DNA of 26,059 bases, taken from the UHGV virus genome UHGV-0143644; one strand, written 5' to 3'. The notes under the pieces were generated by a model. It made no database searches and was not told the DNA's origin. It saw only the letters and a list, made by a program, of their open reading frames with translations. Every line of letters starts with the position of its first letter. The first letter of the stretch is position 1. This document shows positions 18,249-18,638 of the stretch, one piece after another. The DNA is from a virus. The position numbers were made by a program, and so were the translations under genes.

Positions 18249-18268
18249 CACTGTTTATACATACAGTA
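18249..18268. promoter_or_regulatory. LexA (SOS) box
   Basis: CACTGTTTATACATACAGTA has CTGT-N8-ACAG with an AT-rich spacer; 17 of 20 positions match the consensus TACTGTATATATATACAGTA. Confidence 0.6.
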
Positions 18269-18301
18269 TTCTGTTGTATGGTTAAAGAGCTACAGAGAAA
18301 A

Positions 18302-18412
18302 ATGAATTTTTCTTCCGGCGAACCTATTAGGAAATTTGCGCCATTTGTTATTTTGGCTCTGTGGAGTGGATTTCTCCCCGCCGGGAGAGCGTATTTGTGG
18401 ATAGCAAAATGA
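18302..18412 (+). CDS. Candidate small hydrophobic peptide (36 aa) downstream of the LexA box
   Basis: MNFSSGEPIRKFAPFVILALWSGFLPAGRAYLWIAK; weak ribosome-binding site; a speculative small membrane peptide. Confidence 0.3.
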   Translation: MNFSSGEPIRKFAPFVILALWSGFLPAGRAYLWIAK

Positions 18413-18422
18413 GGGGGTTGAT

Positions 18423-18638
18423 GTGGCTGAGGTGTGTTCTGATGGAGGTGAGTATTACGATCTCGTGAGGCGTTCCGACGGAGCGCCCTTGTGTTCGTTT
18501 AAACTCCGGTCAGGGGATCGCGTGCTGATAAATTCTGATGATGCAGTAATCGGCCACAAGCTTCTCCAGGCGGATGAGCGCGTCATATCTCGCGAAACTC
18601 TGGTCGAGATCGTCAGGGAGTTGTCAGCCAATAATTGA
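18423..18638 (+). CDS. Hypothetical small protein (71 aa)
   Basis: GTG start 5 nt after a GAGGGGG Shine-Dalgarno; no recognised motif. Confidence 0.4.
   Translation: MAEVCSDGGEYYDLVRRSDGAPLCSFKLRSGDRVLINSDDAVIGHKLLQADERVISRETLVEIVRELSANN

Follow-up and report, generated by a model that had tools for sequence, protein, structure and literature searches.

LexA-repressed promoters drive antirepressors against non-cleavable repressors in coliphage 186, whose Tum protein is encoded in the p95 SOS operon, and in N15, whose antirepressor is AntC. In the Gifsy prophages, the antirepressor GftA has a GUG start codon and is encoded in a LexA-controlled operon of the order dinI-antirepressor-irsA (Lemire, Figueroa-Bossi and Bossi 2011, PMC3121763), and its binding to the Gifsy repressor, which is short and non-cleavable, displaces that repressor from DNA (PMC3121763). 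FsoA of Salmonella Fels-1, a prophage induced through CI cleavage, acts in trans on GtgR of Gifsy-2 and is dispensable for induction of Fels-1 (PMC3121763), while the small GfoA-like antirepressor Rem inactivates DicA in the cryptic prophage Qin of E. coli K-12 (Ragunathan and Vanderpool 2023, PMC10448788); non-cleavable repressors of the GtgR type, such as DicA and RacR, have been reported in most E. coli genomes (PMC3121763). Here we describe positions 18249-18638 of UHGV virus genome UHGV-0143644, a stretch of 26,059 nucleotides (nt), hereafter the window, that extends from integrase to terminase genes and has a classical lambda-type early region. We consider it probable that this region is a Gifsy-type SOS induction module, made up of a LexA box, a leader and a gene for a 71-residue antirepressor that is most likely trans-acting or stranded, and that a 36-codon open reading frame (ORF) within the leader is not a gene.

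The likeness to the dinI-gftA/gfoA/gfhA-irsA operons of Gifsy-1, -2 and -3 is one of both content and position. In Gifsy as in the window, a LexA box lies in the promoter of an operon that stands apart from the immunity region, on the downstream side of the replication genes, and a homologous, GTG-initiated antirepressor of about 70 residues follows a G-rich ribosome-binding site and precedes DUF1367/irsA, NinG and Q; the order in the window (O, P and, further on, methyltransferase, box, antirepressor, DUF1367, NinG, Q) is that of Gifsy-1/2. Non-cleavable GtgR-type repressors accompany the operon in Gifsy, as they do in the relatives of the window's module. The window differs from Gifsy in that its protein shares no more than about 36% identity with GftA, in that a 933W-type self-cleaving cI takes the place of a GtgR-type repressor, and in that a conserved, probably structured, non-coding leader of about 150 nt lies between box and antirepressor where Gifsy has dinI. 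No DinI ORF or Pfam match was found between the window's box and antirepressor, where the 154-nt leader stands alone, and dinI is retained in one relative from Citrobacter (L006).

Several lines of evidence argue that the LexA box at 18249-18268, CACTGTTTATACATACAGTA, is real and not a chance match. A preliminary description of this DNA, made from the letters alone, had noted a 17/20 match to the SOS box inside an AT-rich islet, and both observations hold: the site departs from the consensus TACTGTATATATATACAGTA at positions 1, 7 and 12 only, and guanine-plus-cytosine (GC) content is 33-45% across 17800-18400 versus about 60% on either side. The pattern CTGT-N8-ACAG occurs once in the whole window, at this site, but these 8 bases are weak evidence alone, as at least one copy appeared in 19 of 100 shuffles. 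The full 20-mer is significant. On a 20-column matrix derived from 22 LexA sites of E. coli it scores 25.4 bits (training sites: median 20.6, maximum 27.5). None of 200 Markov simulations of the whole window and none of 3000 that modelled the AT-rich islet reached this value, and the second-best site in the window has 15.4 bits. That second site, TACTGGATCTATCAACAGGA (12360-12379), lies between the cII stop and O start codons in the 933W-like arm described below, and its score is within the range of weak genuine LexA sites.

The strongest evidence for the box is its conservation. We compared 42 related loci, from three genomes (Silvania, Enterobacter soli and an Enterobacteriaceae metagenome-assembled genome) and 39 IMG/VR contigs, that encode a protein 55-99% identical to the 71-residue protein of the window; in 41 of them the homologous GTG is preceded, at a distance of 150-192 nt, by a LexA box that scores 19-29 bits. 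The box of L034 is where it is expected; in L012 the left half-site is missing at a recombination joint. Across these loci the CTGT and ACAG arms are invariant and the spacer is variable, which is the pattern expected of a protein-binding site. A scan with the leader motif found a LexA box with the same leader in at least 63 further IMG/VR loci.

The 71-residue ORF (18423-18638, + strand) appears, from homology, synteny and its coding signature, to encode an antirepressor of the GftA/GfoA family, with anti-repressor activity predicted; of the possibilities raised in the preliminary description, which had also remarked on the strong Shine-Dalgarno sequence of this ORF, a LexA-controlled antirepressor is the one that stands. 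The Shine-Dalgarno sequence is GAGGGGG (18411-18417), and a ribosome-binding site of the AGGGGG type, 5 nt before the GTG, was present in every homologue examined, Gifsy-2 gftA included; start codon and ribosome-binding site are kept in all of the 40-plus homologues, and in L005 an overlapping out-of-frame ATG is lost while the GTG is retained. Among 10 loci that also keep the small ORF intact, variable sites in the 71-residue gene fall 21/21/43 by codon position, as expected of coding sequence. The protein matches phrog_4847 (E 2e-13), and tblastn against phage genomes (2.3 Gb) returned exactly two records, STM2621.1n of Gifsy-1 and STM1020.1n of Gifsy-2, at 36.5% identity over residues 20-71 (E 2e-5). 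Both are flanked by a dinI homologue on one side and a DUF1367 gene, then NinG and Q, on the other, and are gftA by position (compare PMC3121763). The shared residues include an N-terminal MAE and a C-terminal E(I/V)VRE(L/M)(S/G)xNN motif (EIVRELSANN in the window, EVVREMGSNN in GftA), and a YDLVRRSDG motif is common to the window's protein and GfoA-like proteins of Citrobacter and Buttiauxella. Next in the window, at 18724-19323 on the + strand, stands the irsA homologue (Pfam DUF1367, E 2.6e-96), whose product is 87% identical to Gifsy STM1020/STM2620.

This family of antirepressors is small, with 35 homologues in a set of 5.8 billion proteins and, by profile search, 24 clusters at 50% identity among 1.84 billion representative proteins. 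Pfam has no family for the 71-residue product and found no DinI domain in it. Tum of phage 186, by contrast, has 146 residues and a DinI-like C-terminal half, and hhalign of the two gave a probability of 0.25%, that is, no homology. An AlphaFold2 model of the window's protein has four strands and a C-terminal helix. A GfoA-like gene may also stand in another kind of setting: in Buttiauxella izardii (L008, 8995-9201) such a gene, for 68 residues (MSEIYDLVRRSDG...), directly follows an integrase-like gene and precedes one for a 587-residue primase-like protein, in an apparent satellite or island of the P4 type; the gene has no LexA box upstream, and its product is possibly an antirepressor that derepresses a helper.

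The partner that such an antirepressor usually has is missing from the window. Upstream DNA of about 5 kb or more is available for 29 relatives; with Gifsy-2 GtgR as query, tblastn found a repressor of 137-153 residues in every one of them, at 45-78% identity (78% in contig L009), and no match in the window. The window's cI (10934-11641, - strand) is of the 933W type, with helix-turn-helix (HTH) and S24 peptidase domains (Pfam HTH_3 and Peptidase_S24, the latter at E 3.5e-16), and 232 of its 235 residues (99%) are those of 933W cI. It has the serine of GDSM, the lysine of IKVL and, in the linker AILGVDG, a Leu-Gly pair, at which 933W cI is reportedly cleaved. The 933W repressor undergoes RecA-stimulated autocleavage, according to Koudelka et al. 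2004 as cited in PMC4848623 and PMC5977221, so the suggestion of an SOS input separate from cI autocleavage fits the gene content. The antirepressor thus appears to be separated from its usual GtgR-type partner in cis, because the Gifsy-type immunity region has been exchanged for a 933W-type one.

A role in trans is plausible, since the L009-type repressor is homologous to DicA (32% identity, E 1e-12), DicA is inactivated by Rem, and repressors of this type, such as DicA and RacR, are reported in most E. coli genomes. The pair of Rem and DicA offers an E. coli case of a small antirepressor acting on a short non-cleavable repressor, although LexA control of rem has not been reported. FsoA offers the other parallel, as it too is a member of this family in a prophage with a CI-like self-cleaving repressor; it differs in being controlled by the Fels-1 repressor from the left operon, whereas the gene in the window has a LexA box of its own and still lies in the nin region. 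The alternatives to a role in trans are that the gene is a vestigial passenger or that its product cross-reacts with the 933W-type cI.

Cross-reaction would mean that the antirepressor also inactivates the resident cI, so that SOS would act on the prophage through autocleavage and antirepression alike and the threshold of induction would be lower. A profile built from the GtgR-type repressors of the 29 relatives does align with the HTH half of the window's cI (residues 16-85, E 2.5e-5), so a distantly related HTH is shared; antirepressors of the GftA/GfoA family can act on non-cognate repressors (PMC3121763); and the same repressor type is paired with antirepressors 55%-80% identical to the window's, which suggests loose specificity. 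We nevertheless think such a second input unlikely, because the antirepressor is paired with a GtgR-type repressor in 29 of 29 relatives and with an S24-type repressor in none, because the conserved C-terminal half of the GtgR type (LLSLFNQLPEAEKLRL...) has no counterpart in the window's cI, and because the exchange looks recent (the arm that carries the module is 99.5% identical to L009), leaving little time for co-adaptation; moreover, FsoA plays no part in inducing its own CI-cleavage prophage, Fels-1 (PMC3121763).

The evidence for that exchange lies in the mosaic structure of the window. Positions 1-2640 are 100% identical to E. coli chromosomes (espL1 and integrase gene), 8500-12885 are 99.1-99.9% identical to E. 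coli lambda-like phages, and 12850-22313 match L009 at 99.5% identity, with an identical leader and a 99% identical antirepressor. The E. coli, 933W-like left arm and the Gifsy-like right arm meet within the O gene at 12850-12885, where the lambda-like match stops (12885), the L009 match starts (12850), the two overlap by 36 nt and GC content steps up from 44% to 59%. The simplest reading of these matches is that the window represents a recent recombinant with 933W-type immunity in place of Gifsy-type immunity.

It is improbable, in our judgement, that a chimeric assembly across the 36-nt shared stretch produced this combination and that no real prophage combines 933W immunity with the Gifsy-type module. 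Such an artefact would account for the overlap of two high-identity matches by those 36 nt only, for the jump in GC content at the junction and for the right arm being without a close relative in 5,426 complete E. coli genomes. The junction is, however, in frame in the middle of O, which remains an intact ORF of 305 codons; a joint in mid-O is a classical recombination joint of lambdoid phages, and the second point at which the window diverges from L009, at 22313, is a gene boundary, as in natural mosaics. Furthermore, one complete E. coli genome, GZ2408P (L052), proved in a distant-mode DNA search to carry the same cassette of promoter, box and leader, in a Rac/Gifsy-like prophage, which means that the module circulates in E. 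coli.

Within the right arm, the unit that is conserved between phages spans 18130-19630 (+ strand) and comprises an AT-rich upstream stretch, promoter, LexA box, leader, antirepressor, DUF1367/irsA and a small ORF. The blastn blocks common to the window and L003, L004 and L014 start at 18129-18130 and end at 19535-19666, and to the left of the unit (17570-18130) the DNA varies from phage to phage. Neither phage records nor complete E. coli genomes gave a megablast match to 18100-18720, and the link of the region to Gifsy was seen only with protein-level and profile searches.

At the LexA box the promoter scan returned nothing above its threshold, and its terminator-like matches were no more than chance gives. 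The best promoter candidate is probably P1 (18202-18231, + strand; -35 TTGCGC at 18202-18207, an 18-nt spacer and -10 CATACT at 18226-18231), because TTG and GTGCATACTT are invariant or nearly so in 31 of 33 distinct leaders while the sequence of the spacer varies. P1 agrees with the consensus at 8 of 12 positions, under the scan's threshold, and would place the LexA box at about +11 to +30, with transcription predicted to start near 18238. The other candidate overlaps the box itself (18254-18282, + strand; TTTATA at 18254-18259, a 17-nt spacer and TATGGT at 18277-18282), with 8 of 12 consensus positions as well, with TGTATGGTT kept in most leaders and with a predicted start near 18289. The -10 element of L005, L018, Gifsy-2 and phage 186 is instead TACTGT and coincides with the box's left arm. 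A further promoter-like site, TTGACC-N18-CATAAT (18635-18664, + strand), agrees with the consensus at 10 of 12 positions and spans the stop codon of the antirepressor gene, ahead of DUF1367/irsA; that Gifsy-2 has the same hexamer pair, TTGAC(C/T) and CATAAT, at the same place suggests that irsA may also have its own LexA-independent promoter.

The DNA between box and antirepressor (18269-18422, + strand) is best read as a structured, untranslated 5' leader of the antirepressor messenger RNA. It is better conserved than the gene behind it, with 13 of 108 sites variable versus 85 of 213 in the coding sequence across the same 10 loci. RNAalifold predicts a long-range helix between UCUUCCGGCG (18311-18320) and CGCCGGGAGA (18379-18388), both on the + strand. 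On an alignment of 33 sequences, 84% of the cells of this helix are paired versus 56-66% in slid controls, with a covariation score of 0.40 versus at most 0.27, and across 59 distinct leaders every helix position is paired in 83-100% of the sequences. Compensatory changes occur in L052, L004, L020/L035/L067 and L015/L038/L039; GZ2408P, for example, pairs CUUCCAGCC with GGCUGGAAG where the window pairs CUUCCGGCG with CGCCGGGAG. A fold constrained to the helix has an energy of -40.9 kcal/mol compared with -42.7 for the minimum free energy.

The 3' strand of the helix could alternatively form a local hairpin with 18372-18378. As a terminator, this hairpin (18372-18389) was rejected, since its covariation was no better than that of slid controls and its 5' arm is deleted in three relatives, and the long-range helix is the preferred prediction. 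Descent of the leader from dinI, or from the spacer between dinI and gftA in Gifsy, was likewise considered and rejected, as no convincing alignment extended beyond the ribosome-binding site. Rfam, searched over 17800-18760 at E up to 1, contained no matching family.

The cassette of promoter, box and leader precedes at least four antirepressor alleles, of 71, 79, 82 and 64 residues, from which it follows that cassette and antirepressor coding sequence reassort independently. Alleles for small proteins that look unrelated stand behind it at 9224-9418 of L052 (GZ2408P) and in L056, L070, L163 and others. That the leader gates translation or transcript elongation of a potentially lethal gene is a reasonable guess, nothing more.

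The 36-codon ORF MNFSSGEPIRKFAPFVILALWSGFLPAGRAYLWIAK (18302-18412, + strand; ATG at 18302, TGA at 18410-18412) lies inside this leader, and we judge it to be an accidental frame there and not a toxin gene. The box does lie upstream of it, as the preliminary description had it, but the start codon is at 18302, not 18304, and the gap is 33 nt. Among 33 distinct leaders, 15 keep the ATG and 10 of these the full-length ORF, the others having a stop at codon 21 (3), a stop at codon 33 (1) or a frameshift (1); about 18 of the 33 are without ATG or ORF. Variable sites in the 10 intact loci fall 4/6/3 by codon position, compared with 21/21/43 in the 71-residue gene. No Shine-Dalgarno sequence precedes the ATG at 18302, and the product has no Pfam or PHROG match.

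Translation of the ORF as a leader peptide, which would open the leader structure and be coupled to initiation of the antirepressor, is very improbable. Its TGA overlaps the antirepressor's Shine-Dalgarno sequence, it spans both strands of the helix and it is intact in 10 close relatives, all of which such coupling would lead one to expect; most leaders that keep the helix and the downstream gene nevertheless lack the ATG or have a broken frame, and neither the ribosome-binding site nor the codon-position signature of a translated ORF is present.

We give almost no credence to the proposal of a toxin-antitoxin locus in which the ORF would encode a type I toxin, SOS-induced like TisB or DinQ: the strong LexA box 33 nt upstream and a hydrophobic stretch of about 17 residues (FAPFVILALWSGFLPAG) recall TisB/IstR-1 and DinQ/AgrB, and neighbourhoods of this sort exist, as in Qin, where the antirepressor gene rem adjoins the type I toxin gene hokD, but, unlike those toxins, the window's ORF is broken or absent in most relatives and carries no sign of coding, an RNA helix with compensatory changes accounts better for the conservation of its nucleotides, and the antisense RNA suggested alongside it found no counterpart in the scans, which gave no minus-strand promoter-like site and no Rfam match at E up to 1, although a novel small RNA could escape them. 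In Qin itself (L049, 2152-2775) rem stands beside relBE as well as hokD.

Other features of the window concern its borders and the DNA around the module. The left end is chromosomal flank with espL1 (66-1964, - strand), a type III effector gene with a ShET2 N-terminal region and ankyrin repeats, followed by a P4-type integrase gene (2639-3847, + strand) that runs opposite to the exo-bet-gam operon; no tRNA gene was found in the window. The Rfam family Lambda_thermo, the cIII RNA thermometer, matches 7473-7531 on the - strand with 88.5 bits, which confirms a lambda-type left operon, and is the only Rfam match in the window at gathering thresholds. The Gifsy-like arm carries a gene for a 687-residue C-5 cytosine DNA methyltransferase (15536-17599), with copies 72-92% identical in about eight relatives; its GTG-initiated ORF opens far upstream of the methylase domain, and its true start codon is therefore uncertain. 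Between this gene and the module, a non-coding AT-rich stretch (17925-17990) is dense in GATC and ATCGAT palindromes (tgATCGATaataccgATCGATacaatgaaattGATCtatgaaATCGATtatt), which could be an array of Dam/SeqA sites or of regulator-binding sites; L003 has similar text, in which a minus-strand ORF, probably spurious, can be read. The left edge of the conserved module is marked by an AT-rich inverted repeat (GTTAAAAATAACGATCATTTTTTAC, 18125-18160), which forms a perfect 9-bp stem in L034/L035 (GTGTAAAAA...TTTTTACAC) and may correspond to the terminator-like palindromes upstream of Gifsy LexA boxes (PMC3121763).

Some observations weigh against assigning the region to the SOS induction modules of the Gifsy type. 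The match to GftA, which is characterised, covers 52 residues at only about 36% identity, and Rem of Qin resembles the window's protein no more than marginally (E 0.006, hhalign probability 1.8%). The AlphaFold2 model, built from 25 sequences, is of low confidence (predicted local distance difference test, pLDDT, 64.7; predicted template-modelling score, pTM, 0.42). Folded as a single sequence, the leader is no stabler than shuffled sequence (z -0.3 to +0.5), so that the case for structure is comparative only. LexA binding and the choice of promoter are predictions from sequence, and the target in trans is conjecture.

The induction module that we favour would work as follows. In an undamaged cell, LexA would occupy 18249-18268 and keep the adjacent promoter off; DNA damage would lead to RecA-stimulated cleavage of LexA and free the promoter. 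The transcript would consist of the structured leader of about 150 nt and the GTG-initiated antirepressor gene, and would probably continue into DUF1367/irsA. By analogy with proteins of the GftA/GfoA family, which bind short, non-cleavable repressors of the Gifsy/DicA type and strip them off DNA, the antirepressor would be directed at repressors of that class. As the mosaic prophage has evidently swapped its Gifsy-type immunity region for a 933W-type one, its own cI would inactivate itself by autocleavage, and the antirepressor would most likely be directed in trans at repressors of the GtgR/DicA/RacR type that belong to other prophages of its E. coli host cell; alternatively, it would be a recently stranded passenger.

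A more specific form of the trans reading can be put forward only tentatively, and we hold it to be possible rather than likely: that an intact, LexA-gated antirepressor of the Gifsy family, without a partner in cis, serves in an E. coli prophage with 933W immunity as a trans-acting SOS signal that derepresses the DicA/RacR/GtgR-type repressors of co-resident prophages, cryptic ones included, and that it is gated by a previously undescribed cassette of structured leader RNA shared by at least four allele families. If this were true, DNA damage would be coupled to division inhibition of the dicBF type or to the induction of other prophages.

The system is of a known kind; what is modestly new is the conserved leader cassette and the splitting of an antirepressor from its repressor class. 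The module belongs to a well-populated, dinI-less branch of Gifsy-type, antirepressor-mediated SOS induction systems, with about 40 phage contigs carrying the window's allele and at least 63 more carrying the promoter-box-leader cassette before other alleles. For annotation, the GTG-initiated 71-residue ORF should be called a gene and the 36-residue ORF should not. Leaky expression of the antirepressor would kill the lysogen, and the conserved leader offers a concrete candidate, open to test, for a post-transcriptional gate. Induction and immunity modules evidently reassort independently, so that an antirepressor may land in a prophage that does not need one; if active there, it would be raw material for prophage crosstalk such as that seen in Salmonella, in E. 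coli, where repressors of the DicA/RacR type are common.

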